The notes: generated by a model not told the origin, from the letters alone. A stretch of DNA of 64,000 bases from an uncultured Chloroflexia bacterium (GCA_963819655.1 CAWFXA010000002.1:1472001-1536000); one strand, 5' to 3'. Positions 43,798 through 56,758 are shown, counted from the stretch's first letter. Program-made: numbers and translations.

Positions 43798-44766
43798 ATG
43801 AACGACGGCGTGACTGATTCGCCGATCCCGGAAGCACGCGGTCCGCACCTGCCCGACGTGCTGACTCGGCAGTCCATCTGGGTGTTCGTGTTCGGTCTCG
43901 CCGCGGTGTTCATCCTGTGGAGCGTCTGGCGACGGTGGACGGCGGAGTACACGATCGTGGACCTGAACGCCGTGTCGGCACTCCTGTTCGGACTCATCCC
44001 GGGCGTGGTGGCGCCGCTCTTCGGGGTCGCGCTCTTCGCCCGCCATCCGGATGCGCGACGGACCATGCCGTTGCTCGTCTTCGGCCTCGTCCTCTTTGCG
44101 TTCGCCGAGCTCCTGGAGACATTCGACCGCGCCATCTTCGAGGCGCTTGTCGCCTTCACGCCGGAGGACACCGGCCCGGTCACGCCGGCGGTCGTCGCGT
44201 TCGGCGTGTTCACGGCGCTGCTCGGGATGTTCGCCGCGCTCTACACGGGAGCGGGCTTGTCGAGCGCGCGCCGCCTTGAGCGCAGCGCCGCGGAGCGCCC
44301 GCTGATGATCTGGCTCGTTGCCCTCGGGGTCGTCAGCGCGGTCGTGTCGATCGCGTCCATCGTGCCGTTGCTGAGTGGAACACCCGCTCCGGGAGATCTC
44401 CTCCAGCTCGCCGTCAGCTTGGTCGTGAGCTTGCTCGTGACGCTGGCGTGGGCCTATCTCGTGACGGTCACGGTCGGCGGCTGGCTGTCGGGCGACGTGC
44501 CTCGACGGGCCTGGGCTCTGGCCGCAGTCGCCACCACCGTGCTGTTCGCGGTGCGGCTGACGATCGGGGCCGTACTCGGGACCGGGGAGCCGTGGATCAC
44601 GATCGTGATCGTCGCGGGCTACGCATCGCTGGTCGCATGGGTGCTGCTGCTGGTCGCGTTCTGGCTCGGTCTGCCGTCGCCGCGCGATCCTGTCGCGGAA
44701 CCGTCCGCGGACGAGCCTACGGTCGATCCACAGGAAGCGACGCTGCCAGGTTCCGCAGCAGGTTGA
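43798..44766 (+). CDS. Multi-pass membrane protein of unknown function
   Basis: About 8 hydrophobic segments; TAGACT -10 lies 7 nt before the ATG. Confidence 0.7.
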   Translation: MNDGVTDSPIPEARGPHLPDVLTRQSIWVFVFGLAAVFILWSVWRRWTAEYTIVDLNAVSALLFGLIPGVVAPLFGVALFARHPDARRTMPLLVFGLVLFAFAELLETFDRAIFEALVAFTPEDTGPVTPAVVAFGVFTALLGMFAALYTGAGLSSARRLERSAAERPLMIWLVALGVVSAVVSIASIVPLLSGTPAPGDLLQLAVSLVVSLLVTLAWAYLVTVTVGGWLSGDVPRRAWALAAVATTVLFAVRLTIGAVLGTGEPWITIVIVAGYASLVAWVLLLVAFWLGLPSPRDPVAEPSADEPTVDPQEATLPGSAAG

Positions 44767-45319
44767 GGCCTTCGTCGACCTGCTCGGTCGTCGCGTACGG
44801 ACCGGGCATGAGGAAGCACGGCCGACCGGCCAGCGCGACGCCCTTCAGCTGACCCCACGGCTCGTCCAGCTCGCGGCCAGCGGCGGTCTGGGCCACACGC
44901 TTGTAGATGAACACGACCGCGCCCGGTCGCCAGAGCGCGATCTTCTGCCAGAGCGGGCCCACGCCTTCACGCAGCTGTTCGTCCGTGGCCTCGTCTCGTG
45001 CCGTCGGGCGCTTGATCAGGTCGGTGATCCCGTGGCCGGCCAAGACGAGGGCGTCGTCCGCCGCGGTGACGTCGGTGCGGAGCGGGATGATGCCCGTATG
45101 CATCAGCCGCTGCCAGAATTGCTGCCCGAGACGCCCTTGGTGGTAATGGCCGGCCGCGACGCTGACCGGCGATGGGTTCAGGCCGACGAACAGCAGGCCG
45201 TCACGTCTGGGTGGCAGGTCGGCGAGCGTCTCGGTCGGGACGCCGTCGATCTCGATCGTCGTTCGATGCGGACCCGGGTCGGGTCGCCGGATGAGAGCCT
45301 CGAGTTCGTCCGGGGTCAC
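44717..45319 (-). CDS. mug: Mismatch-specific uracil-DNA glycosylase (Mug/TDG family)
   Basis: LFVGLNPS..S...GHY......FW, GITDLIKRPT. Confidence 0.8.
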   Translation of the reverse strand: MTPDELEALIRRPDPGPHRTTIEIDGVPTETLADLPPRRDGLLFVGLNPSPVSVAAGHYHQGRLGQQFWQRLMHTGIIPLRTDVTAADDALVLAGHGITDLIKRPTARDEATDEQLREGVGPLWQKIALWRPGAVVFIYKRVAQTAAGRELDEPWGQLKGVALAGRPCFLMPGPYATTEQVDEGLNLLRNLAASLPVDRP

Positions 45320-45609
45320 GCCGTGTCGGGCGGCCTGCGGTCGGCCGGTGGGGTGTCCGTCTCCGCGTCCGCCGGGGTCTCCGCCGGCGCGTCTGCCGGT
45401 CCGTCAGCCGGTGCTCGGTCCGTCTCGCCGGTGGACGTCGACTCGTCCGACGCGCGCGCCTGGATCTCGGCCTGCGCCTTCGATGCCTCATCGCGCGCTT
45501 CGCGCACACCCCGCCCGAGCGCCTGCCCCAGCTTGGGCAGCGTCTTTGGCCCGCGCCACAGCAGCACGAGCGCGAGGATCACGATGAGCACGAGACCGAT
45601 GTCCTGCAT
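45316..45609 (-). CDS. tatA: TatA/TatB-family twin-arginine translocase subunit
   Basis: N-terminal TM, then GPKTLPKLGQALGRGVRE amphipathic helix and acidic tail. Confidence 0.75.
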   Translation of the reverse strand: MQDIGLVLIVILALVLLWRGPKTLPKLGQALGRGVREARDEASKAQAEIQARASDESTSTGETDRAPADGPADAPAETPADAETDTPPADRRPPDTA

Positions 45610-45650
45610 CCGCGGATGGTAGCGCGGCGGCACCCGCTATCGTGCCGGTC

Positions 45651-47342
45651 ATGCTGCTCGTCTTCGGGCCACGCTCCACCGACTACGATTTCGGGGCCGA
45701 CCATCCCCTGACGCCTCGCCGTTTCGGGCCTGGGATCGATCTCCTCCGCTCGGTCGGGGCCGAGCCGGGTCTGGCGCCCGAGCCGGCGCCCGACGCCGAC
45801 CTGTTGCTGTGCCACGCGGCCGAGTACCTCGAGGTCGTGAAGCGGTTCTCCGTGGATCCGTTCGGGTTCCCAGAGGCAGGGATCGGCATCTCCGACAACC
45901 CGCCGTTCCCGGGCATGCACGACGCCGCCGCAGCGGTGGCCGGTGGCTCGTTGCGCGCGATGGAGGCGATCCTCGACGGCGATGTCGAGCATGCCTTCCA
46001 CCCGGGTGGCGGCCTGCACCACGCGATGCGCGCGCGGGCGTCCGGTTTCTGCATCTTCAACGACCCGGCACTGGCGATCGCGCGTGCGCGCCGGGACGGG
46101 TTGCGGGTGCTGTACATCGACCTCGACGTCCATCACGGCGACGGTGTCCAGGCGCTGTTCTGGGACGACCCGGGCGTGCTGACGTTCTCGATCCACGAGA
46201 GTGGTCATTACCTGTTTCCGGGCACAGGCGATGTCGCGGAGGTGGGGGAAGGCGTCGCCGCGGGGACCGCTGTCAACGTCCCGCTCCTGCCAGGGACCGG
46301 GGATCGGGCCTGGGTGGCCATCCTGGAGATGCTGCTCCCCGAATTGGCCGCCGCGTTCGGGCCGGACCTGATCGTGTCGCAGCACGGGGCAGACTCGCAT
46401 GCATGGGATCCGCTCGCGCATCTCGACGTCACGACGACGGGCCACGGACGGGCGGCGCGGCTGGTCGACCAGCTGGCGCATCGATTCGGGCGTGGTCGAT
46501 GGCTCGCGACAGGCGGCGGCGGGTACGACGCATATCGGGTGGTGCCCCGGACCTGGTCCCTGACCTGGCTGGCCGGGGCGCATCTCGAGGTGCCGGCTTC
46601 GATGCCGGGGGAGTGGCGCGAACGGTGGACGGCCGAGGCGACACGGTACGGGCAGGTGCCGCTCCCCGCGACGTTCGACGACGGCGTGATCGCCGACGAC
46701 GACCTTGACCCGGAACAGGCCGCTCTCTACCTCGCGGCGCTCGAGGTGGCCGGCCTCGCCCGCTGGGCCACGATCCCGCGGCTCGTCAGCGAGGCCGTGG
46801 ACCGTGGGTGGTGGAACCCGATGGTGCCCGCATCCGGGTTGATGCCCGCGACAGCGGACGAGATGGCGGGAACCCCGACCATCGTCCGGTCGGTGGACGC
46901 CACCACCTGGGCGCGGCTCACGTTGCAGCCTGGCGTCGTCGCGCCGGCCGATCCCGCCAGCGCGCATGACCTGATCGCGGCGGGCCTCTTGTCGGCTGAT
47001 CCGGCTCGCGTCTCTGCGGCGGTCGTCGGGTCCAGCGTTGTCGGACTCGTCGTGTCGGCGCCGGCGGATCCGCGGGACGGGGAGATGGAGATGCTGGGGC
47101 TTGGCGTCGCCCCCGCGTTTCGTCGGCTGGGTCTCGCCGGCCGGTTGCTCGCGGAGCACGCCGAGTCAGGCACGCTCGCGAGCGTGACGCTGGCCGAGCG
47201 AGACGTCGTCGAACCGCTCGATCGCGGACTTCGAGCGTCGATCGCGCGTCGCCTTCTCGAAGGCGCCGGGTTCGAACTGAAGGCCGCCGACGGAGCCATC
47301 CGTGGCGTCGACCCGCTGGCGTTCACCGCTTGGCTGCCCTGA
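45651..47342 (+). CDS. acuC: AcuC-type (HDAC family) deacetylase fused to a C-terminal GNAT domain
   Basis: HPL.P.R, GGLHHA, SGFCIFND, DLDVHHGDG, GADSH..DPL, GGGGY; C-terminal LGVAPAFRRLGLAGRLL...GF. Confidence 0.88.
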   Translation: MLLVFGPRSTDYDFGADHPLTPRRFGPGIDLLRSVGAEPGLAPEPAPDADLLLCHAAEYLEVVKRFSVDPFGFPEAGIGISDNPPFPGMHDAAAAVAGGSLRAMEAILDGDVEHAFHPGGGLHHAMRARASGFCIFNDPALAIARARRDGLRVLYIDLDVHHGDGVQALFWDDPGVLTFSIHESGHYLFPGTGDVAEVGEGVAAGTAVNVPLLPGTGDRAWVAILEMLLPELAAAFGPDLIVSQHGADSHAWDPLAHLDVTTTGHGRAARLVDQLAHRFGRGRWLATGGGGYDAYRVVPRTWSLTWLAGAHLEVPASMPGEWRERWTAEATRYGQVPLPATFDDGVIADDDLDPEQAALYLAALEVAGLARWATIPRLVSEAVDRGWWNPMVPASGLMPATADEMAGTPTIVRSVDATTWARLTLQPGVVAPADPASAHDLIAAGLLSADPARVSAAVVGSSVVGLVVSAPADPRDGEMEMLGLGVAPAFRRLGLAGRLLAEHAESGTLASVTLAERDVVEPLDRGLRASIARRLLEGAGFELKAADGAIRGVDPLAFTAWLP

Positions 47343-47723
47343 CCCAGGCTGTGCCGGGTCGGCTCGGAGATCGAACGTCCCGAGCCAGGTCGGGCCGCCC
47401 GACGCGATCACCGGCTCGTCGCCGGCCGGCATATGCCCGATGACGTAGCGCTCCAGGCCCGCCGCATCATCGAAGAACGTCACGATCACGCGAGCGTGCG
47501 GTCGCGCCCGGCGGAGCTCCTGCGCGATGGCCGGCAGCCGTCGGCGGTCGGTGCCGGCCGCGACGACCACGTTGAGCGCGAGGACCGATCCGTCGTCGGC
47601 CACCCACCGCGCCGTGACAGCGACCTCCGCAGCCGGCGCAGGCGGCTGGGTCGATGGCGGCGGGGCCGCGCAGGCCAACGCCGCCATGACGACCAAGCCG
47701 ACGACGGCCGTCCTCAGCACCAC
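47166..47723 (-). CDS. Putative lipoprotein (3' end uncertain, probably near 47340)
   Basis: Lipobox-like ALAC followed by a Pro-rich linker. The start overlaps the end of the upstream gene; the long overlap with acuC suggests a 3' indel. Confidence 0.5.
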   Translation of the reverse strand: MVLRTAVVGLVVMAALACAAPPPSTQPPAPAAEVAVTARWVADDGSVLALNVVVAAGTDRRRLPAIAQELRRARPHARVIVTFFDDAAGLERYVIGHMPAGDEPVIASGGPTWLGTFDLRADPAQPGSGQPSGERQRVDATDGSVGGLQFEPGAFEKATRDRRSKSAIERFDDVSLGQRHARERA

Positions 47724-48301
47724 TTCGTCAGGCGGAACTCGATGCCCTGGAAGTTACGCGCGGTGCCGATCCCGATCTTCCTGTCCGAACCGATGAACGG
47801 CTCCTGCCAGACCTCGAAGCTGTACTCGAAGAAGACGTTGTAGGCGCGGATCGTCCAGCACGCGCCATTCGGCACAGTGGTGCTGGAGCGATATGCCACG
47901 GATTCGGATCGCTCCACGTTGAAGCCGACGCCGGCGGTCACGACCTCGGCGCTCACGCTGACGTTCGCCGAGAAGCTGTTCTTGACGGTCCGCGTGATAT
48001 CGATGCCGATCGTGGTCGGGCCGTTGCCCTGGACCATCGTCACGAACGGCTTGATCGTTCGCACGTACCGCCGGTTCTTGACATAGATGCAGTCCCAGAC
48101 GCACAGGGCCTGGGTCCCGGCCGTGCTGCTACCCGTCGCGGGCACGATGAGGCCCTTCGCGATCAGCTCGGCGCGGCTCACGAAGGTGACGACTTCCTTC
48201 CGGGAGCTTTCAGGGCTTCCGGCCGCGGCCGAGGCCGGAGCGACGAGCCCGACGGCGACCACGATGGCCAGGACGAGCGGGAACTTGAGCGAGCGACGCA
48301 T
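47714..48301 (-). CDS. Secreted beta-rich protein, aerolysin/ETX-MTX2-like pattern
   Basis: Signal peptide; SFSANVSVSAEVVTAGVGFNV amphipathic hairpin followed by S/T-rich strands and TVP; SD GAGGT. Confidence 0.65.
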   Translation of the reverse strand: MRRSLKFPLVLAIVVAVGLVAPASAAAGSPESSRKEVVTFVSRAELIAKGLIVPATGSSTAGTQALCVWDCIYVKNRRYVRTIKPFVTMVQGNGPTTIGIDITRTVKNSFSANVSVSAEVVTAGVGFNVERSESVAYRSSTTVPNGACWTIRAYNVFFEYSFEVWQEPFIGSDRKIGIGTARNFQGIEFRLTKWC

Positions 48302-48452
48302 GCCACCTACCTCATGTGGCGGGCTACCTCACGTGGCGGGCGACGGCTGTCCGGCGTCGGGAGCACCCTAGCGGGCCGCGCTCACCTCTCGCGTATCTGC
48401 CGCTCTACTGGCGCGTAGCTGTGCCGAACGTGGCCGACTTCGTCTCGCCGTA

Positions 48453-49163
48453 TCAGCCGGGTGCAGCGTTAGTCGCTCGCGGACCGACCAGGCGGTAGCC
48501 CAAGCCGTACTCCGTCGCGATCATCGACTCGCCGGGCGCCACCGCGTCCAGCTTGAGGCGCAGGTTGCGAACCGTCATGCGCAGCAGGTGCACGTCCCGG
48601 TCGTACCCGGCGCCCCAGACTCCGCCGAGCATCTGGCGATGGGTCACCAGCTGACCGCCGTGCTCGACGAGGAAGGCGAGCAGGCGGAATTCGGTCGGCG
48701 TGAGGCCGATCTCCACGCCTCGCAGGTGCGCACGATGCTCGTCGAGGTCGACCGCGAGCTCGCCGTGTCGGAGCCGTCGCGGTCGCTCCGGCGAGCTGGT
48801 CCCCGCCCGTCGCAACGCGGCCTCCACGCGGGCGAGGAGCTCCGGGAAGGACACCGGCTTCGTGATGTAGTCGTCCGCCCCGAGCTTCAGGCCACGGATC
48901 TTCTCCGCCTCCGAGCCGCGGGCGGTGACCATAAGGATCGGCACGCGGCTGAACTCGCGAAGGCGCTCGAGCAATTGCCAGCCGTCCAGGCCGGGCAGCG
49001 CGACGTCGAGGACGACGAGGTCGGGGCGTTCATCGTGGAAGCGGCGCAGGGCGTCGGGTCCGGTACGTGCCGTGACGGTTCGGTAGCCGGCCTGCCCGAC
49101 CCACAGTTCGACGAGCGCTGCGAACTCGGGCTCGTCCTCGACGATCAGCACGGTCTCAGCCAT
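48453..49163 (-). CDS. OmpR/PhoB-family response regulator
   Basis: LIVEDE, LDVALPGLDG, VTAR, GADDYITKP, LTPTEFRLL, T.YG.GYR. Confidence 0.95.
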   Translation of the reverse strand: MAETVLIVEDEPEFAALVELWVGQAGYRTVTARTGPDALRRFHDERPDLVVLDVALPGLDGWQLLERLREFSRVPILMVTARGSEAEKIRGLKLGADDYITKPVSFPELLARVEAALRRAGTSSPERPRRLRHGELAVDLDEHRAHLRGVEIGLTPTEFRLLAFLVEHGGQLVTHRQMLGGVWGAGYDRDVHLLRMTVRNLRLKLDAVAPGESMIATEYGLGYRLVGPRATNAAPG

Positions 49164-50757
49164 CGGCGTCCCCTGATCGCGCAAGTGGGAGCGTGATCCG
49201 GACCCTCGTTCCGGATCGGCCGTCGGCTCGATCGCCGACAGTCAGCTCCCCGCCATGCGCCTCGACCAGGCGCCGGCAGATGAAGAGCCCCAGGCCGGTC
49301 CCCGGGATTCGCGATTCGCGCACGTTCCAGGCGCGATGGAACGGCTCGGTAACGAGCACGCGGTCCGCCTCGGGGATGCCAATGCCTTCGTCGTCGACGG
49401 TGATAACAAGCCATGGCCTGGCGACCATCGCCCCAACGACCACAGGACTGCCGTCGGGCGCGTATTTGAGGGCGTTGCCGACCAGGTTTGCGAGGATCTG
49501 GCCCACCCGCGCGATGTCGACCTCGATCGTGGGCAGGTCATCGGCGGCGTCGACGACGAGACGCTCCTCCTGGCGCGTCATCGTGAGGTCTCCGCGCAGA
49601 CGGGCGACCAGCGCATCGAAAGTCGTGGCCCGGCGCTCGAGGATGAGCGGATCGGCTTGCAGGTGGGTCACGTCGAGGACCTGGTCGACGAGGGCGGCCA
49701 GCCGGGTTGTCGCGTCGTCGATCCGCTCGACGTAGGCGCGCTGTTGCTCGGGCTCGAGCGGTAGGTGGAGTAGCGTCTCCGCGTAGCCGCGGATGAGGGC
49801 GAGCGGCGTCCGCAGCTCATGGCTGACGGTCGCCACGAACCCTTCCCGGAGCTCCTCGAGGGCCTGCACGGCGCTCATGTCGCGAAGGATCGCGGTGGCC
49901 CGCGTGTCGCCCCCGTCGCTCGCGCCGGAGACCGTGACGGCATAGCTGCCCGCCACCCGGACGGGCGAGCCGGCCTGACCACGGACGGCGGATTCACGGT
50001 AGGCGATGGGGTCGCCACCGCGGCGCACCTCGGCAAGCGGGCAGTCGGCAAGCGTGTGCCCACCGGCGATCTCGCAGCCGAGGACGTCCCCGCAGCTCCG
50101 CCCGATGGCCGCCTCGGTTGTGGTGCCGAGCAGCCGCTCGCCGGCCGGGTTGAGTCGCACGACGCAGCCCTCCGCGTCGACCTGCAGGATGAGATCGGTG
50201 GCCCCTTCGACGATGGCGCCGAGCTCGTGGCGTTCGCGTTCGAGCGCCTGTCGCAACCGGGCGCCCTCGAACGCCACCACCAATTCGTGCCGGGCGAGGA
50301 GGGCGATCCGGAGGCCGTCCTCGTCGAGCTGCCGCCCAGCCGTTGGCCAGACAGCGAATGCCGCGCGCAGTGCCCCATCGCCGAGCGTGACGCCTCGCGC
50401 GCCCGGCCACGTGGCAGTCCAGGCCTGCAGCGCGTCGACGTCCGGGAAATCCGTCGGGACCGGGTTGCCGTTCGGAGCCCCCGTCACGGACACCAGGGTG
50501 ACGGAGCGCTCATCGGGGCCGCCGATCCACAACGCTCCGCCTGCGGCGTCCGCGAGCCGGATGAGCTCGAGCAGGACCGAACCGGAAAGCTCCCCGAGCG
50601 TCCCGCCGGTCGCGATCAGCTGGCTCAGCTGGTATTGCGCGAAGAGGGCGTCCGCCTCCCGCTGGGCGTCATCGAAGGCGCGTCGTCGGTCGCGCTCGAG
50701 TGCATCGATGCGGGCCAGGAGTCCGGCCGCGCCCGGCCGGGCCGTCGGGTCACCCAT
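49156..50757 (-). CDS. Soluble sensor histidine kinase (coiled coil, GAF-like, PAS, HisKA, HATPase)
   Basis: VSHELRTPL, NLVGNALKY, DEGIGI, GTGLGL; PAS (NPAGERLLG) with a C...C...H...CP motif; no TM segment. Confidence 0.92.
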   Translation of the reverse strand: MGDPTARPGAAGLLARIDALERDRRRAFDDAQREADALFAQYQLSQLIATGGTLGELSGSVLLELIRLADAAGGALWIGGPDERSVTLVSVTGAPNGNPVPTDFPDVDALQAWTATWPGARGVTLGDGALRAAFAVWPTAGRQLDEDGLRIALLARHELVVAFEGARLRQALERERHELGAIVEGATDLILQVDAEGCVVRLNPAGERLLGTTTEAAIGRSCGDVLGCEIAGGHTLADCPLAEVRRGGDPIAYRESAVRGQAGSPVRVAGSYAVTVSGASDGGDTRATAILRDMSAVQALEELREGFVATVSHELRTPLALIRGYAETLLHLPLEPEQQRAYVERIDDATTRLAALVDQVLDVTHLQADPLILERRATTFDALVARLRGDLTMTRQEERLVVDAADDLPTIEVDIARVGQILANLVGNALKYAPDGSPVVVGAMVARPWLVITVDDEGIGIPEADRVLVTEPFHRAWNVRESRIPGTGLGLFICRRLVEAHGGELTVGDRADGRSGTRVRITLPLARSGDADG

Positions 50758-51406
50758 CGGCGATCGCCCGCAGGAGAAGCGCACATGAGACGGCGCCGGG
50801 GTCGAGATGACCGATCGACCGATCGCCGAGGCGGAGCGCCAGACCGCGCCGGGCGACGAGTGACCGCGTGGATCTCATCCCCCTCGCTGCCGACCACACG
50901 GCGGCGGCCGTGGCGTGACCCGGGGATTCGCCGCGTGACGTCGCATCGACAAACGTGTCCGCTGCCGGCCGCAGCGCGTCGAGGATCGTCTTGTCGCCCA
51001 CCGTGCAGCGTCCACGGCGCGCCAGGCCCTCGGCGGCCGCCACGAGCATCGGCCCGAGCGCGGCCGGGTCGAGCGAAGGTGCATCGCCGGCGGTGACGCC
51101 CGCCTCGAGGAACGCGGTGCCATACAGCGGCCCGGACGCTCCGCCGACGGCCGCCACCAGTCGATGGCCGACGGCCCGGAGCAGCTCGCCGGGCGGCGTC
51201 TCTAGCGGCATGTCGTCGAGCATCGCCTCGACGGCCCGGAACCCGATGACGAGGTTGTCGCCGTGGTCGCCATCGCCCAGCACCGTGTCGAGCCGCGTCA
51301 GGTAGTCGGCGTGGCGTTCGACGACGACCCGGCATCGTCGGAGGGCCGCCCGGACAGCAGCCGCATCGATCACGTCGCGGGGCGTGGCGGATGGCGATGC
51401 GGACAC
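50750..51406 (-). CDS. dhaL: DhaL paralog (DAK2 domain) with altered GRASYLG loop
   Basis: LD..LGDGDHG.N, GGASGPLYG, GDKTILDAL, GHLDPGA; the loop reads RRGLALRLG. Confidence 0.87.
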   Translation of the reverse strand: MSASPSATPRDVIDAAAVRAALRRCRVVVERHADYLTRLDTVLGDGDHGDNLVIGFRAVEAMLDDMPLETPPGELLRAVGHRLVAAVGGASGPLYGTAFLEAGVTAGDAPSLDPAALGPMLVAAAEGLARRGRCTVGDKTILDALRPAADTFVDATSRGESPGHATAAAVWSAARGMRSTRSLVARRGLALRLGDRSIGHLDPGAVSCALLLRAIADG

Positions 51407-51501
51407 GGTCGGCCGACGATAGTCGGTCCGCTGGGCTCGGGCAACGCGACCACCGGGCCACACCAGCCTGCCCGCGCTCGCGTGGCGCCGTTCTGCGGAC
51501 C

Positions 51502-51531
51502 TCTTGATGCCATCTTGCTTTCTTCTTGATG
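51502..51531. promoter_or_regulatory. Three direct repeats at 11-bp period (putative OmpR-family binding site)
   Basis: TCTTGATG (51502), TCTTGCTT (51513) and TCTTGATG (51524) in the divergent intergenic region. Confidence 0.65.
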
Positions 51532-51602
51532 ACCTCCGGCAGAGCATCGCCTCCAACCAGCAACCCGGGTGCAACCCACCCAGCAGATGAAAGGAGGCGC
51601 GC

Positions 51603-52007
51603 TTGGTGGGCCTGATCCTCGTCTCCCACAGCGGCATGCTCGTCGACGGTCTGCGCGACATGGTCGCCCAGGTGGCCGGCGCCGACGTCCCCGTGGCGAC
51701 CGCCGGTGGGACCGAGGATGGACGCCTCGGCACCAGCGCTCCACGTATCGCCGAGGCCGTCCGCTTCGTCCTCGACCGCGCCGACGATGCAGTGGTGCTG
51801 CTCGACCTGGGCAGCGCCGCCTTGAGCCTCGAGCTTGCGCTCGAGGACCTGACCAGCACCGATCGACAACGGATCCGCGTCACTGAGGCGCCGCTCGTCG
51901 AGGGCGCGGTCCTCGCCGCGGTCCAGGCCAGCGTCGGCGCCACGATCGACGAAGTCGTTGCGGCGGCCGAGTCGGCCGCGACGATGCCCAAGCTGCCACG
52001 GACGTGA
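51603..52007 (+). CDS. dhaM: Dihydroxyacetone kinase phosphotransfer subunit DhaM (EIIA-Man-like)
   Basis: GLILVSHS, AGGT.DG.LGTS, LLDLGSA, APLVEGA; SD AGGAGG. Confidence 0.92.
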   Translation: MVGLILVSHSGMLVDGLRDMVAQVAGADVPVATAGGTEDGRLGTSAPRIAEAVRFVLDRADDAVVLLDLGSAALSLELALEDLTSTDRQRIRVTEAPLVEGAVLAAVQASVGATIDEVVAAAESAATMPKLPRT

Positions 52008-52279
52008 CGATGTCGGAGATCCGCCTCGTCGTCATCGACCCCGCCGGGCTCCACGCCCGGCCTGCCGCGCGGTTCGTCCAGGCGGCGACGCGTTTCACGA
52101 GTCGGATCGTCCTCCGTCAGGACGGTCGGGAAGCCGACGCGAAGAGCCTCATCGCCCTACTCGGGCTGACGATCCGACCGTCGTCCGAGATCACCCTCAC
52201 GGCCGATGGCCCTGATGCCGACGCCGCCCTGGCCGCCCTGCAGGCGGAGCTCGCCCCGTACGTCAGCCAGGCCGGCTGA
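52004..52279 (+). CDS. ptsH: HPr phosphocarrier protein
   Basis: GLHARPAA, ADAKSL, ADGPD. Confidence 0.93.
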   Translation: MTMSEIRLVVIDPAGLHARPAARFVQAATRFTSRIVLRQDGREADAKSLIALLGLTIRPSSEITLTADGPDADAALAALQAELAPYVSQAG

Positions 52280-52308
52280 CCCACCAGACTCCGAGGAGGT
52301 AGCACCGG

Positions 52309-53085
52309 ATGTCCCCGACCCTGCCCCAGAAGTTGACCGCCGAAGCCATCGGCACTGCGATCCTCGTCTTCATCGGCGCGGGCTCCGTGCCGCTCACCGT
52401 ATTCCTGACCGCTGGCGCCGGCGGCACCGGCATCGATGGCACCGCTGGTCTGTCGACCATCTCGTTCGCGTTCGCGTTCGCCATCTTCGCCGCGATCTAC
52501 TCGGTCGGCCACATCAGCGGATGCCACATCAACCCGGCCGTCACGATCGCGCTGCTGGCGACACGCAAGATCGACGCCGCGACCGCGGCCTCGTACATCG
52601 CTGCTCAGCTCGTCGGCGCGTTCATCGGTGCAGGGCTGACGTTCATCATCCTGACCGGCAACGACCCGCAGACCCTTGGGCTCGGCGCGGTCGGCGTCAA
52701 TGTGAATGCGGGCCTGCTCGTGGGATTCGCGGCCGAGGTCATCGGCACGGCGATCCTCGTGTTCACGGTCTTCGGGGCCGCAGTCAGCGGCAAGGCGCCG
52801 TCCGGTTTCGCCGGCCTCGCCATCGGGTTCATCGTGTACGGGATCATCATCCTCGTCGGCCCGATCACCGGTGCGGCGCTCAACCCGGCCCGCCAGATCG
52901 GACCCGACATCCTCGAGATGCTCATCGGCGGCGCAGCCCCGGCGTGGGATGCGCTGGCCCTCGTGTATATCGCCGGGCCGATCGTCGGCGGTCTTGTCGG
53001 CGGCTTCCTGTACGAGTTCATCGGACGCGAAGTGACCGCACCCGCTCGCTCGACGACCGTCGCTGAGGCCCGTGCCGAGGGGTAG
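52309..53085 (+). CDS. glpF: MIP-family channel (glycerol/DHA facilitator)
   Basis: [10 protein letters not shown] and LNPAR NPA motifs, six TM helices, dha-operon context. Confidence 0.85.
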
Positions 53086-53144
53086 CCCCGACGCCCTGCC
53101 GATCGTTCGCGACTCCACAAACTGACCCGAGGAGGATCCATCCG

Positions 53145-54167
53145 ATGGCGACCAACACACCCACCCGGGTGAAGAAGCTCTTCAACGCGATCGAGGACAT
53201 CGTCCCTGAGAGCCTCCGTGGCCTCGAGGCGGCGCATCCCGACCTGGTCAAGGTGGACCTGAGCCAGAACCTCGTCCTCCGCGCCGGAGGGCCGAAGCAA
53301 GGCAAGGTCGCCCTGATCTCGGGCGGTGGGTCCGGTCACGAACCGATGCATGGCGGCTTCGTCGGCCTGGGCATGCTGGACGCGGCCGCAGCCGGCAATG
53401 TCTTCACGTCGCCCGTGCCGGACCAGATGGAGGCTGCGACCCGCGCCGTCGACGGCGGCGCTGGCGTGCTGCACATCGTCAAGAACTACACCGGCGACGT
53501 CCTGAACTTCCAGCTCGCGGCCGAGCTCGTCGGCGGCGACATCGAGGTGGCGACCGTCGTCACCAACGATGACGTCGCCGTCCAGGACTCGCTGTACACG
53601 GCCGGACGCCGTGGCGTCGGGGTCACGGTCCTCCTCGAGAAGATCGCCGGCGCCCATGCCGAGGCCGGCGGGTCGCTCGCCGACGTGGCGGCGACGGCCA
53701 CCAAGGTCAACGACCAGGGCAAGTCGATGGGTCTCGCGCTGACATCGTGCGTCGTCCCCGCCGCGGGCACGCCGACGTTCGACCTGCCCGACGACGAGGT
53801 CGAGGTCGGTATCGGCATCCACGGCGAGCCGGGCCGCCGCCGCGAGAAGCTGGCGCCCGTCGATGACATGGCCGAGTGGCTGGTCGCGCCGATCGTCTCC
53901 GATCTTGGACTCAGCCGCGGCGATACGGTGCTTGCATTCGTCAACGGCATGGGCGGCACGCCGCTCATCGAGCTCTACGTGGCGTTCAACAGCGTCGCGA
54001 AGATCCTCGGCGGGCAGGGCATCTCGATCGGGCGCTCGCTCGTCGGGAACTACATCACCAGCCTCGAGATGGCCGGGTTCTCGGTGACCCTGCTGCGGCT
54101 CGACGATGAGCTCACCCGATGGTGGGATGCCCCGGTGCACACACCGGCCCTACGCTGGAAGGTCTGA
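53145..54167 (+). CDS. dhaK: Dihydroxyacetone kinase substrate-binding subunit
   Basis: [43 protein letters not shown]. Confidence 0.96.
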
Positions 54168-54185
54168 CAGACCCGCTCGACGCGA

Positions 54186-54224
54186 GCGGCCGCCGCACCG
54201 TCCTCCCTCAGGTGCGGCGGCCGC
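54186..54224 (+). terminator. 14-bp GC stem-loop between dhaK and dhaL
   Basis: GCGGCCGCCGCACC-N11-GGTGCGGCGGCCGC; no U-tract; a TAGACT -10-like hexamer follows at 54265. Confidence 0.45.
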
Positions 54225-54303
54225 CGCCAAACCCGCATACCTTTCACGCGTTCGCGCCGCCTTCTAGACTCGGGCGCGACCGCCGCCGTCAAGGGATCCA
54301 TCC

Positions 54304-54954
54304 ATGATCGACGTCATCGATGCCTGGCTCCGCCTGGCCGCCACTCGCCTGCACGATCAGGCAGCGATCCTGACCAAGCTCGATCAGGCCATCGGCGATG
54401 GGGACCACGGCACCAACATGGACCGCGGGTTTAGCGCGATCGTCACGATGCTCGACAGCGAACCGCCTGCGGGCGACGGCCAACTGGCCGTCGGCGGCGC
54501 ACGTCTGCGGACTGCCGGGCGGACGCTGATCAGCACCGTCGGCGGCGCCGCCGGACCGCTCTATGGCACCGCGTTCATGCGCGCCGGCGGGGCCATCGCC
54601 GCCTTGCCCGAAAAAACGCCCGGCAGCGTGGCCCTGGTCGCCGGTCTCGATGCGGCGATCGGCGGGGTCCAGTCGCTCGGCAAGGGCGTGGCCGGCGAGA
54701 AGACCATGCTCGATGCATTGCTGCCCGCCCTCGCTGCCGGACGCGAGGCGTCCGACGCGGGCGACGACCCAGGCGCCCTGGTCCATTCCATGGCGGATGC
54801 CGCCGAAGCCGGGGCGGCCGCCACGATCCCGATGCTCGCCACCAAGGGTCGCGCGTCCTACCTGGGCGAGCGTTCGATCGGGCATCAGGACCCGGGAGCC
54901 ACCTCTGCCGCGCTCCTGTTGCGGGCGTTGGCCGATGTCGCCGGGGGCGAGTGA
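54304..54954 (+). CDS. dhaL: Dihydroxyacetone kinase ADP-binding subunit
   Basis: LDQAIGDGDHGTNM.RGF, GPLYG, GEKTMLDAL, canonical ATKGRASYLGERS.GHQDPGA. Confidence 0.95.
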   Translation: MIDVIDAWLRLAATRLHDQAAILTKLDQAIGDGDHGTNMDRGFSAIVTMLDSEPPAGDGQLAVGGARLRTAGRTLISTVGGAAGPLYGTAFMRAGGAIAALPEKTPGSVALVAGLDAAIGGVQSLGKGVAGEKTMLDALLPALAAGREASDAGDDPGALVHSMADAAEAGAAATIPMLATKGRASYLGERSIGHQDPGATSAALLLRALADVAGGE

Positions 54955-54958
54955 TCCG

Positions 54959-56758
54959 ATGGAGCGAACGGTGGCGCGGACCGTGGCCCGAGCCCGAGCC
55001 CGAGCCGCGACCGGGGCCTGGACGCCTGGCCCGGTGCTCGTCGGTCGGCCCGGTGCGCCGGGTGTCGGGGTCGGGCGTGCCCTGGTCGTCGAGCCGCCTG
55101 GTGGCGGGGGCTCAGGCGCGGCCGGGGTGGGCGCGAGCCCGATCGGCGCGGACGCCGTGGGCGTGCCCGCCGTGGGCGTGCCCGCCGATCCCGCAGCGGA
55201 GGCCGACCGACTCCGGGCGGCGCTCGAGAGGGCCGCCACAGAGCTGACGGACCTCGCCGATGAGACGACGACGCGTGCCGGTGAGGACGTCGGGGCGATC
55301 TTCGTGGCGCAAGCCCTGTTCGCGCGTGATCCGGGAATCGTGGATCCGACGCTCGACGAGATCTCGGCCGGCATCCCGGCCGCGGACGCGATCATCAGCG
55401 TGACGGCCCGGCATGCCGACAGCCTGGCCGGTGTCGACGACGACTACTTTCGGGAGCGCGCCGCCGACGTGCGCGACATCGGCCGACGGGTCGCCGCGCT
55501 CCTTCGCGGTGAACGACGTCCGGACCTGTGGCACGCGGACGGTCATCCGGCAGTGCTGATCGCCGCCGACCTCGATCCATCGGTGGTCGCGTCCCTGCGT
55601 CGAGAGCTTGTCGCAGGCATCGCGACGGCGGGTGGGACATCGACCGGCCATGCGGCGATCGTCGCGCGTGCACTCGGCATCCCGCTCGTCCTCGGGCTCG
55701 GCGAAGGGATCTCGGCCGTGTCGAATGGCATCGAAGTGGCGGTCGAAGGATCGACCGGCCGACTTCTCGTTGATCCCGGGCCGGAAACCCTGGCAGCGCT
55801 CCGATCGGCTGCGACCTCAGCGCCGGTGGCCGGCGCAGACCGCGCGTCCACGCACGGCGTGGCGGTCATGGCCAACGTCTCGTCGCCCCTCGAGGCGGCG
55901 GCCGCCGGCCAGGCCGAGGCAGACGGCATCGGACTCGTCCGGACAGAGCTCCTGTTCCTGGGTCGACACACGCCCCCGACCGTCGATGAACAGCGAGCGA
56001 CCTACGCGCACATCCGAGCCAAGTTCGGCGATCGGCCGATCGTGTTCCGAACGCTTGACGTCGGTGGCGACAAGCCGGCGTCGTGGCAGCACGGGCCTGC
56101 CGAGACGAATCCCGCCCTGGGAGTGCGAGGCGTCCGACTCGGTCAGCGTCAGCCCGACCTGCTCGACGATCAGCTCCGCGCGCTCGTCGAGGCGGCGAGC
56201 GAGGACGAGCTGCGGGTCATGGTCCCGATGGTCGCGACTCGCGAGGAGCTCGACGATGTGAGATCGCGGCTCGACGCGGTCGTCACAACCGTTTCCGCCT
56301 CGACCGGCGTCCGTCCGCGGGCGATACGGCTCGGGGTCATGATCGAGGTGCCTGCCGCGGCGGTCATGGCTGACGTGTTCGCGGAAGCGGCGGACTTTCT
56401 GTCGATCGGGACCAACGACCTTGTCCAGTACGTGCTCGCGGCCGACCGGACAAATCCCGACCTCGGTGATCTCGCTTCACCCCTGCAACCGGCGATCTTG
56501 CGGCTGATCGACAGCGTGGTCCAGGCGGCGCGCCTCCACGGACGACACGTCGCCGTCTGCGGGGAGGCGGCTGGGGATCCCGCGGTCGTGCCGCTGCTCC
56601 TTGGGCTGGGCGTGGAGGAGCTGAGCGTTACCCCTGCGGCGATCGCATCTGTTCGCAGCACGCTTGCCGGGCTAGACCCATCCGTTTGCGAGGCCCTCGC
56701 CAAGCGTGCCCTGAGCGCCCGGTCGCTGGCCGAGGTGCGGGCGCTGCTCGAGGGCTAG
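54959..56758 (+). CDS. ptsI: PEP-protein phosphotransferase (PTS enzyme I)
   Basis: ERAADVRD, GHAAIVARALGIP, GIGLVRTE, RTLDVGGDK, MIEVPAA, SIGTNDL.QY, VCGE. Confidence 0.93.
   Translation: MERTVARTVARARARAATGAWTPGPVLVGRPGAPGVGVGRALVVEPPGGGGSGAAGVGASPIGADAVGVPAVGVPADPAAEADRLRAALERAATELTDLADETTTRAGEDVGAIFVAQALFARDPGIVDPTLDEISAGIPAADAIISVTARHADSLAGVDDDYFRERAADVRDIGRRVAALLRGERRPDLWHADGHPAVLIAADLDPSVVASLRRELVAGIATAGGTSTGHAAIVARALGIPLVLGLGEGISAVSNGIEVAVEGSTGRLLVDPGPETLAALRSAATSAPVAGADRASTHGVAVMANVSSPLEAAAAGQAEADGIGLVRTELLFLGRHTPPTVDEQRATYAHIRAKFGDRPIVFRTLDVGGDKPASWQHGPAETNPALGVRGVRLGQRQPDLLDDQLRALVEAASEDELRVMVPMVATREELDDVRSRLDAVVTTVSASTGVRPRAIRLGVMIEVPAAAVMADVFAEAADFLSIGTNDLVQYVLAADRTNPDLGDLASPLQPAILRLIDSVVQAARLHGRHVAVCGEAAGDPAVVPLLLGLGVEELSVTPAAIASVRSTLAGLDPSVCEALAKRALSARSLAEVRALLEG

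Follow-up and report, generated by a model that had tools for sequence, protein, structure and literature searches.

A diverged DhaL paralogue encoded with a histidine kinase and an OmpR-type regulator beside a dihydroxyacetone kinase operon in Limnocylindria: a candidate two-component counterpart of DhaR/DhaL

The window analysed here, a stretch of 64 kb with a G+C content of 70%, comes from an uncultured member of the Limnocylindria (Chloroflexota) and carries a dihydroxyacetone kinase (dha) operon linked to the phosphotransferase system (PTS). On the minus strand beside this operon lies a gene for a diverged paralogue of the DhaL family (Dak2), here termed DhaL', followed by the genes for a soluble sensor histidine kinase and an OmpR-type response regulator; the three genes diverge from the plus-strand genes dhaM-HPr-glpF-dhaK-dhaL-ptsI. 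The subfamily membership of DhaL', its constant pairing with the kinase and a predicted complex of the two proteins lead us to favour, as rather probable, the view that the locus is a two-component counterpart of the E. coli DhaR/DhaL pair, in which DhaL' would report PTS or dihydroxyacetone status to the kinase.

An earlier note on this DNA had described dhaL' as the head of an operon with a soluble kinase and an OmpR regulator, joined by 8-nt overlaps and divergent from dhaM-ptsH-glpF-dhaK-dhaL-ptsI. The gene calls and Pfam domains agree with that layout, and the divergent genes were identified by Pfam and NCBIfam matches on the plus strand. The dhaL' gene (50750-51406, minus strand) encodes 218 amino acids from a GTG start codon, the kinase gene (49156-50757, minus strand) encodes 533 amino acids, and the regulator gene (48453-49163, minus strand) encodes 236. 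The last product contains both a receiver domain (Response_reg, PF00072, 5.2e-29) and a winged-helix domain (Trans_reg_C, PF00486, 2.8e-18), as is characteristic of OmpR/PhoB-type regulators. Read directly, the dhaL'/kinase junction is ATGGGTGA (50757-50750) and the kinase/regulator junction is ATGGCTGA (49163-49156), each of them an 8-nt overlap of start and stop codons.

By profile, DhaL' belongs to the DhaL/Dak2 family (PF02734, 3.4e-46; TIGR02365, 181.8 bits against a cut-off of 138.3). It matches E. coli DhaL (3pnl_B) at 1.2e-30 and shares 42% identity with the adjacent canonical DhaL (54304-54954, plus strand; TIGR02365, 204.8 bits). Translations and alignment bear out what the earlier note had read in its motifs: GDGDHG, GGASGPLYG, GDKT and DPGA are retained, and RRGLALRLG stands opposite the TKGRASYLG of the 54304 copy. 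The KGRASY(L)G loop that is the hallmark of catalytic DhaL proteins, intact in that copy, is thus replaced in DhaL' by RGLALRLG (residues 187-194, encoded at 50825-50848, minus strand).

The same combination of conserved and altered motifs recurs throughout the relatives of DhaL'. DGDHG, with the Mg-binding aspartates, GGASGPLYG, GDKT and DPGA are invariant in an alignment of 42 DhaL' sequences and are kept in 47 DhaL' copies. When these 47 sequences were compared with 46 DhaL sequences from the same loci, both classes were found to share DGDHG, GGASGPLYG, G(D/E)KT and DPGA, whereas fifteen positions were fixed differently, including (in E. coli numbering) T71R, S74A, R90E, K122R, M130I, K176R, R178L, S180L, Y181R and T195V. 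Within the loop, R178L, S180L and Y181R are each present in at least 90% of the 47 DhaL' proteins, and the opposing canonical residues are invariant in the 46 DhaL proteins and in E. coli. Every DhaL' copy examined carries either RGLA[LMV]RLG or CGLAMQYG at this place. Both classes are under similar constraint, with median identities to the window copies of 70.8% for DhaL' and 69.6% for DhaL in the same loci.

The nucleotide in DhaL is capped by a segment of ten residues, which also reaches into DhaK and DhaM and which FakA lacks (PMC9136124). Our alignment with the FakA-like protein encoded in this genome would place the cap in the stretch directly after the altered residues; DhaL' keeps the remainder of the cap (ERS.GH.DPGA). 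The FakA/YloV-like protein itself has no stretch matching the DhaL cap. It is a protein of 569 amino acids whose N-terminus (contig C3, 719450-719941, minus strand) is the third Dak2 domain of the genome, the others being DhaL' and DhaL; there is a single Dak1 gene.

To set DhaL' in its wider family, 1.84 billion cluster representatives were searched by profile. The loop was readable in 118 of the best 150 hits; exact GRASYL was found in 65 of these 150 and GLA[LM] in 10, which include the eight best-scoring hits with a readable loop. A tree was built from 137 sequences, with the Limnocylindria sets thinned to every third sequence and the representatives confined to those of 190-275 amino acids with a readable loop. 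All 26 DhaL'-type tips fell into one clade (support 0.994) that contains no sequence with a canonical loop, and the sister of this clade consists of three sequences with GRASRL loops. An origin of DhaL' as a recent tandem duplicate of the neighbouring dhaL was rejected in view of this separate clade and its GRASRL-loop sister group. Because of its placement in the tree, DhaL' is, as judged from sequence, an old and separate subfamily rather than a recent copy of its neighbour. It may be non-catalytic. Its present annotation as "dihydroxyacetone kinase subunit DhaL" or "dihydroxyacetone kinase-like protein" probably misstates its role.

The kinase had been described earlier as a PAS kinase. Its PAS domain was confirmed by Pfam (residues 181-295) and by fold match (residues about 186-300, encoded at 49858-50202, minus strand), but that description was incomplete, since an N-terminal helix and a GAF domain are also present and it is these that are predicted to hold DhaL'. 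The complete order is N-terminal helix, GAF, linker helix, PAS, HisKA (304-368; PF00512, 2.4e-17) and HATPase_c (414-526; PF02518, 3.3e-25). With a HisKA domain bearing the H box SHELRTPL and an ATPase domain, the protein is a class I histidine kinase. No membrane segment was evident in it, the highest 19-residue Kyte-Doolittle mean being 1.48.

Residues 1-300 of the kinase were folded with a predicted local distance difference test score (pLDDT) of 87.5, and residues 1-175 alone (encoded at 50233-50757, minus strand) with a score of 90.1. In the model, a long helix (residues 10-50) leads into a small alpha/beta domain (54-155), which a linker helix (156-185) joins to the PAS domain (186-300). 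Residues 1-175 are predicted to adopt a GAF fold, with 3cit_B matched at Z 12.5 and a root-mean-square deviation of 3.2 over 139 aligned residues, and essentially all of the top matches are GAF domains; Foldseek E-values for this part are about 3e-4. The PAS domain matches LOV/PAS domains at Z of about 13, and a structural second look at the 300-residue model returned the PAS domain only. The sensor thus appears, in its predicted fold, as a GAF-then-PAS tandem joined by a long helix, which is the module found in DhaR. When the tandem was searched with Foldseek, the DhaR(N) chains 4LRX, 4LRY and 4LRZ ranked 4, 7 and 21 (E 3.6e-8), with 4lrx_C aligned over 285 columns. A profile search of PDB sequences gave no DhaR match for the kinase sensor. 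According to the model, then, the sensor is of the same architecture as that of DhaR, and common descent is not claimed.

Two groups of residues stand out in the kinase. The first is a motif in the N-terminal helix that is invariant in a 42-sequence alignment, F28 Q32 A35 D36 F39 A40 Y42 Q43 Q46; it is unchanged in the loci L109 and L095. The second is a Cys/His cluster in the PAS domain, C-x5-C-x5-H-x4-C, in which C222, C228 and C239 are invariant and H234 is near-invariant. This cluster resembles a site for metal binding or redox chemistry and might give the kinase a second input. In the distant homologue encoded at L109, a Cys occupies the position of the PAS His.

The earlier note had proposed a search for dhaL-kinase-regulator synteny beside dha operons, and the outcome was in its favour. 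A scan of all GTDB species genomes for the kinase sensor gave 61 loci, 58 of them with the full sensor, and in all 58 dhaL' lies directly upstream of the kinase gene on the same strand, with divergent dha genes wherever the contig permits. The regulator gene follows the kinase gene in 56 of the 58; the other two (L081 and L082) reach the contig edge within or just past the kinase. The remaining three of the 61 matches cover the PAS region only, at 29% identity, and are accompanied by none of these genes. In 15 of 15 divergent genomes whose loci were fetched, representing three families and kinase identities of 38-56%, a DhaL' with the RGLA[LMV]RLG loop is again encoded directly upstream and the regulator downstream. 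The loop substitution therefore accompanies the synteny in every case, as the earlier note had suggested it might, and does so in a clade of its own.

Other genomes of the same genus have the full arrangement in 8 of 24 cases, two of these with frame breaks that are possibly assembly errors. In a sample of the class that takes in one unpublished genome (G273), 55 of 401 genomes, or 39 of the 178 of high quality, contain the sensor domain, which is distributed over three families and 15 of 65 genera. Many metagenome-assembled genomes with long contigs show apparent frameshifts across all genes of the locus (L032, L037, L053, L080, L084, L085, L087-L089, L091-L093, L096 and L097), which are more likely to be long-read assembly errors than real pseudogenes.

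A metagenome scan with the CGLAMQYG-type DhaL' yielded nine loci. One of them, contig L109, encodes such a DhaL' 133 nt upstream of a kinase of 35% identity with the same helix motif, and on the other side of DhaL' it carries a zinc-finger gene in place of dhaM and the dha operon. Contig L111 holds a second GLAM-loop copy and is too short to reveal neighbours, the match in L117 comprises 52 residues at a contig end, and the remaining six are canonical or distant DhaL proteins. Because the pairing persists across loci, L109 included, we take DhaL' and the kinase to be the constant unit. The 8-nt overlap between the two genes is not universal: it is present in 2 of 7 related loci, and in the other 5 the stop codon is not overlapped by an ATG. 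Despite this variation the two genes are always adjacent and on one strand.

A physical association of the two proteins is also predicted. The earlier note had proposed modelling DhaL' with the N-terminus of the kinase, and when kinase residues 1-300 (43-row alignment), ADP and DhaL' (42-row alignment) were modelled together, the complex scored 0.87 (0.87, 0.88 and 0.87 in three runs), compared with 0.17 for the best of three controls. For calibration, 116 of 157 solved complexes and 2 of 215 mismatched pairs had attained this mark, a guide that is approximate here given the custom alignments and the inclusion of ADP. Contacts agreed between runs at 100%, and the pLDDT of the partners was at least 91.

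On the kinase side, the predicted interface consists of residues 28, 32, 35-36, 39-40, 42-43, 46-47, 50-52, 56, 60, 63-64, 67-68 and 70; on the DhaL' side, it consists of residues 84, 89-90, 93, 97, 104, 130-133, 186-189, 191-192 and 194. The latter belong to three segments that form a ring around the pocket at its nucleotide-phosphate end: the GGASGPL loop, the RRGR stretch that precedes GDKT, and the altered loop RRGLALRLG. Eight of the fifteen class-specific positions of DhaL' are among its 17 interface residues, an overlap whose hypergeometric p of ~1e-6 is overstated, since neighbouring positions are not independent. Likewise, 11 of the 15 invariant positions in the N-terminal 175 residues of the kinase lie in the interface and are unchanged in L109 and L095; a caveat on the prediction is that the input alignment tells the model about conservation. 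The model supports binding, in which the remodelled nucleotide-phosphate face of DhaL' would meet the kinase at its N-terminal helix and at the first helix of the GAF domain.

The intergenic region of 196 bp between dhaL' and dhaM contains an AT-rich block, CAAGAAGAAAGCAAGATGGCATCAAGA (51502-51528, minus strand), with three direct CAAGA cores at an 11-bp period (CAAGA-N6-CAAGA-N6-CAAGA). Allowing at most one mismatch, this triple repeat is the sole match in the 3.49-Mb genome, with 0 control matches. In the orthologous intergenic regions it was found with at most two core mismatches in 37 of 58 loci and with at most four in 57 of 58, as against 14 of 1160 shuffles. OmpR/PhoB regulators bind direct repeats at a helical period. 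The triple repeat is likely to be the operator of the OmpR-type regulator, which may in this way control the dha promoter. The intergenic alignment also shows conserved promoter-like elements, TTGCCC and TATCGT (51416-51444, minus strand), at a distance of about 10 nt from the dhaL' GTG on its upstream side, a closeness that may point to a leaderless or nearly leaderless dhaL' transcript. A promoter scan of 48300-52100 gave no sigma-70 consensus site, and no Shine-Dalgarno sequence is evident before this GTG.

We propose a mechanism in which the input of the switch would be a protein, DhaL', and not a free small molecule. DhaL' would be a dedicated regulatory paralogue of the ADP-binding subunit, having kept the residues for Mg-ADP and Mg-ATP while the surface around the phosphates, including the start of the nucleotide-capping loop, was remodelled. 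DhaM~P would phosphorylate the nucleotide bound to DhaL', as it does in canonical DhaL, and this nucleotide would be discharged when dihydroxyacetone drains phosphoryl flux through DhaK/DhaL; the ADP/ATP state of DhaL' would therefore mirror the availability of substrate. One of the two nucleotide states would then engage the kinase and shift its balance between autophosphorylation and phosphatase activity. Once phosphorylated, the OmpR-type regulator would bind the triple CAAGA repeat of 11-bp period that separates the divergent promoters, and this binding would switch on dhaM-HPr-glpF-dhaK-dhaL-ptsI and probably the regulator's own operon too.

A more specific form of this mechanism is put forward tentatively, as a possibility in which we have limited confidence. 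DhaL' would be non-catalytic and hold a tightly bound ADP, which DhaM~P would phosphorylate reversibly. With its N-terminal helix the kinase would read whether the gamma-phosphate is present at the open end of the DhaL' barrel, and the altered loop would have exchanged binding of DhaK for binding of the kinase. If so, the PTS would signal to a histidine kinase by means of a protein-bound nucleotide, and the two great bacterial phosphotransfer systems would be coupled.

Several observations weigh against a signalling role of DhaL' of this kind. All of the support is computational, and the hosts are uncultured. DhaL' still scores as an equivalog DhaL by hidden Markov model, and it may have retained binding of DhaM or DhaK, or catalysis. 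The kinase may read a second or different signal through the Cys/His cluster of its PAS domain. As for the resemblance to DhaR, phytochromes, PdtaS, FixL and PpsR match the fold of the kinase sensor as well as DhaR does, and the sensor has no sequence homology to DhaR(N) by hhalign (probability 1.9%, 53 PAS columns aligned). For the GAF domain alone, DhaR is absent among the 50 matches listed after Foldseek search and structural alignment, a result with which a relationship would still be compatible. A solved DhaR(N)-DhaL complex exists (4LRZ), so the score of the predicted complex may partly reflect a remembered likeness; moreover, close cousins of a true partner, such as canonical DhaL, can also pass with the tool used. 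Finally, the triple repeat is degenerate in 20 of the 58 loci (3-4 mismatches) and absent in L095.

DhaL' could instead be a constitutive structural subunit or inhibitor of the kinase, its nucleotide being no signal and the input being a ligand of the GAF or PAS domain; Sda and KipI are accessory proteins that act on kinases and offer a comparison. The complex prediction supports binding and is silent on state dependence, which suits this explanation. We nevertheless consider it unlikely, because the nucleotide and Mg motifs are invariant over a wide divergence, which a mere scaffold would not need, and because the kinase is predicted to dock all around that end of the nucleotide pocket which holds the phosphates. 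The invariable linkage of dhaL' to PTS-type dha genes in Limnocylindria loci argues in the same direction.

Alternatively, DhaL' might be a second catalytic isozyme that only happens to share a transcript with the two-component genes and sends no signal to the kinase, whose input would be a different one, such as redox state or a metal detected by the PAS Cys/His cluster. The score of DhaL' above the NCBIfam equivalog cut-off, its retained Mg and nucleotide motifs, and the presence of C222, C228, C239 and H234 in the kinase could all be accommodated in this way. DhaL multiplicity is also common, since other families of the class have two canonical dhaL genes. Against this, KGRASY is invariant in 46 of 46 neighbouring DhaL proteins and in E. 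coli and is replaced in every DhaL'; the genome has a single dhaK; the pairing with the kinase is kept in L109, where no dha operon lies upstream; and the predicted interface uses exactly the class-specific residues. Such an isozyme is therefore quite improbable.

That DhaL' is an exchangeable ATP/ADP sensor, its altered cap loop permitting exchange with the nucleotide pool and the kinase reading energy charge instead of PTS or dihydroxyacetone status, is very improbable: its substitutions do lie, by our own alignment reading of the cap, at the start of the segment that buries ADP and slows exchange in canonical DhaL (half-life of 100 min; PMC9136124), but the rest of the cap is conserved in DhaL', and a PTS input is favoured by how strictly dhaL' is linked to dhaM and the other dha genes.

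The divergent operon itself begins with dhaM (51603-52007, plus strand), which encodes a single EIIA-Man-type domain of 134 amino acids (TIGR02364, 128.2 bits against a cut-off of 98.25). It is followed on the same strand by genes for an HPr paralogue (52004-52279; PF00381, 6e-26) and a glpF-like channel of the MIP family (52309-53085; PF00230, 5.4e-48), and by dhaK (53145-54167; TIGR02363, 452.8 bits), the sole Dak1 match in the genome. After the canonical dhaL comes ptsI (54959-56758, plus strand; TIGR01417, 418.5 bits), encoding an Enzyme I paralogue whose start is most likely the in-frame ATG at 54959, five bases past the dhaL stop, rather than 54951. Outside the window, on contig C1 (about 44373-49400), a further PTS cluster encodes an EIIC together with another HPr and another Enzyme I. 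Because a second HPr and Enzyme I are thus encoded elsewhere, those of the dha operon are taken to be dedicated paralogues.

The position of ptsI after dhaL is shared by 49 of the 58 loci and by 7 of 11 stretches from the genus; 2 of the 15 divergent stretches have the gene, at other positions. Several relatives from other families (L118-L121, L123-L126, L129, L130 and L132) carry two canonical dhaL genes besides dhaL', arranged as dhaM-dhaL-glpF-dhaK-dhaL or with the extra dhaL convergent with the regulator gene, sometimes with a second dhaM a few kb off; no HPr gene or ptsI was found within the stretches fetched from these relatives. In the window, the locus is flanked by unrelated genes: one side has a deacetylase-family gene, and the opposite side has genes for a regulator of the XRE type and for an Lhr helicase. 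The 566-aa product of 45642-47342 (plus strand) combines a histone-deacetylase-family domain (3e-78) with a weak match to GNAT acetyltransferases (3.5e-4).

The kinds of control that would meet in this locus are each already known, namely control of dha genes by a trigger enzyme and control of a histidine kinase by an accessory protein. Dihydroxyacetone kinase subunits are known to act as "trigger enzymes" solely through regulators of the one-component kind, namely DhaR of E. coli and DhaS/DhaQ of Lactococcus. At this locus the same logic appears to be coupled to a histidine kinase by way of a paralogue that seems to have traded catalysis for signalling. A literature search returned no paper linking a DhaL or Dak2 protein with a histidine kinase, and the main text of a genomic-context survey (PMC4777399), its supplementary tables aside, does not contain the terms "two-component", "histidine kinase" or "response regulator". 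If our proposal is correct, two-component systems would gain in DhaL' a new class of protein co-sensor, and the PTS would be seen to act directly on a histidine kinase, in a phylum whose regulation has been little studied. The locus would also offer a compact, testable pair, a protein of 218 amino acids and a kinase fragment of 175 with a specific predicted interface.

Among known systems, PdtaS of M. tuberculosis (2YKF) shares the soluble GAF-PAS sensor architecture, with 2ykf ranking 5 in the Foldseek search (E 3.8e-8). This is a likeness of fold only, and we know of no DhaL-type partner for PdtaS. Closer in logic are histidine kinases under accessory or PTS control, such as KdpD and PhoR with EIIA-Ntr, NtrB with PII and PhoR with PhoU, in which a cytoplasmic protein whose modification state depends on metabolism binds the kinase and sets its activity, as proposed here for DhaL'. 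To our knowledge, none of these cases uses a protein of the Dak2/DhaL fold or a protein-bound nucleotide as the signal.

In Lactococcus lactis, the TetR-type regulator DhaS works on the dha operon with DhaQ, a paralogue of DhaK. There, as in our proposal, a duplicated dihydroxyacetone kinase subunit is devoted to regulation of the dha operon, a role reflected in the NCBIfam name of TIGR02362, "DhaKLM operon coactivator DhaQ". The Lactococcus pair differs in that the paralogue is that of the substrate-binding subunit DhaK and acts with a one-component, TetR-type regulator, whereas the Limnocylindria locus joins a DhaL paralogue to a two-component system.

The nearest parallel is provided by E. 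coli, where DhaR is activated by DhaL and repressed by DhaK, depending on the nucleotide load of DhaL (PMC10084136). In both cases a DhaL-family protein carries, or would carry, the signal to a GAF-then-PAS sensing module, and the regulator is encoded divergently from the dha operon. The output differs, being of the AAA+ enhancer-binding type in E. coli and a histidine kinase with an OmpR-type regulator here. So does the carrier of the signal, which is the catalytic DhaL itself in E. coli and would be, in Limnocylindria, a dedicated paralogue with a remodelled loop that is predicted to dock through the N-terminal helix of the kinase.

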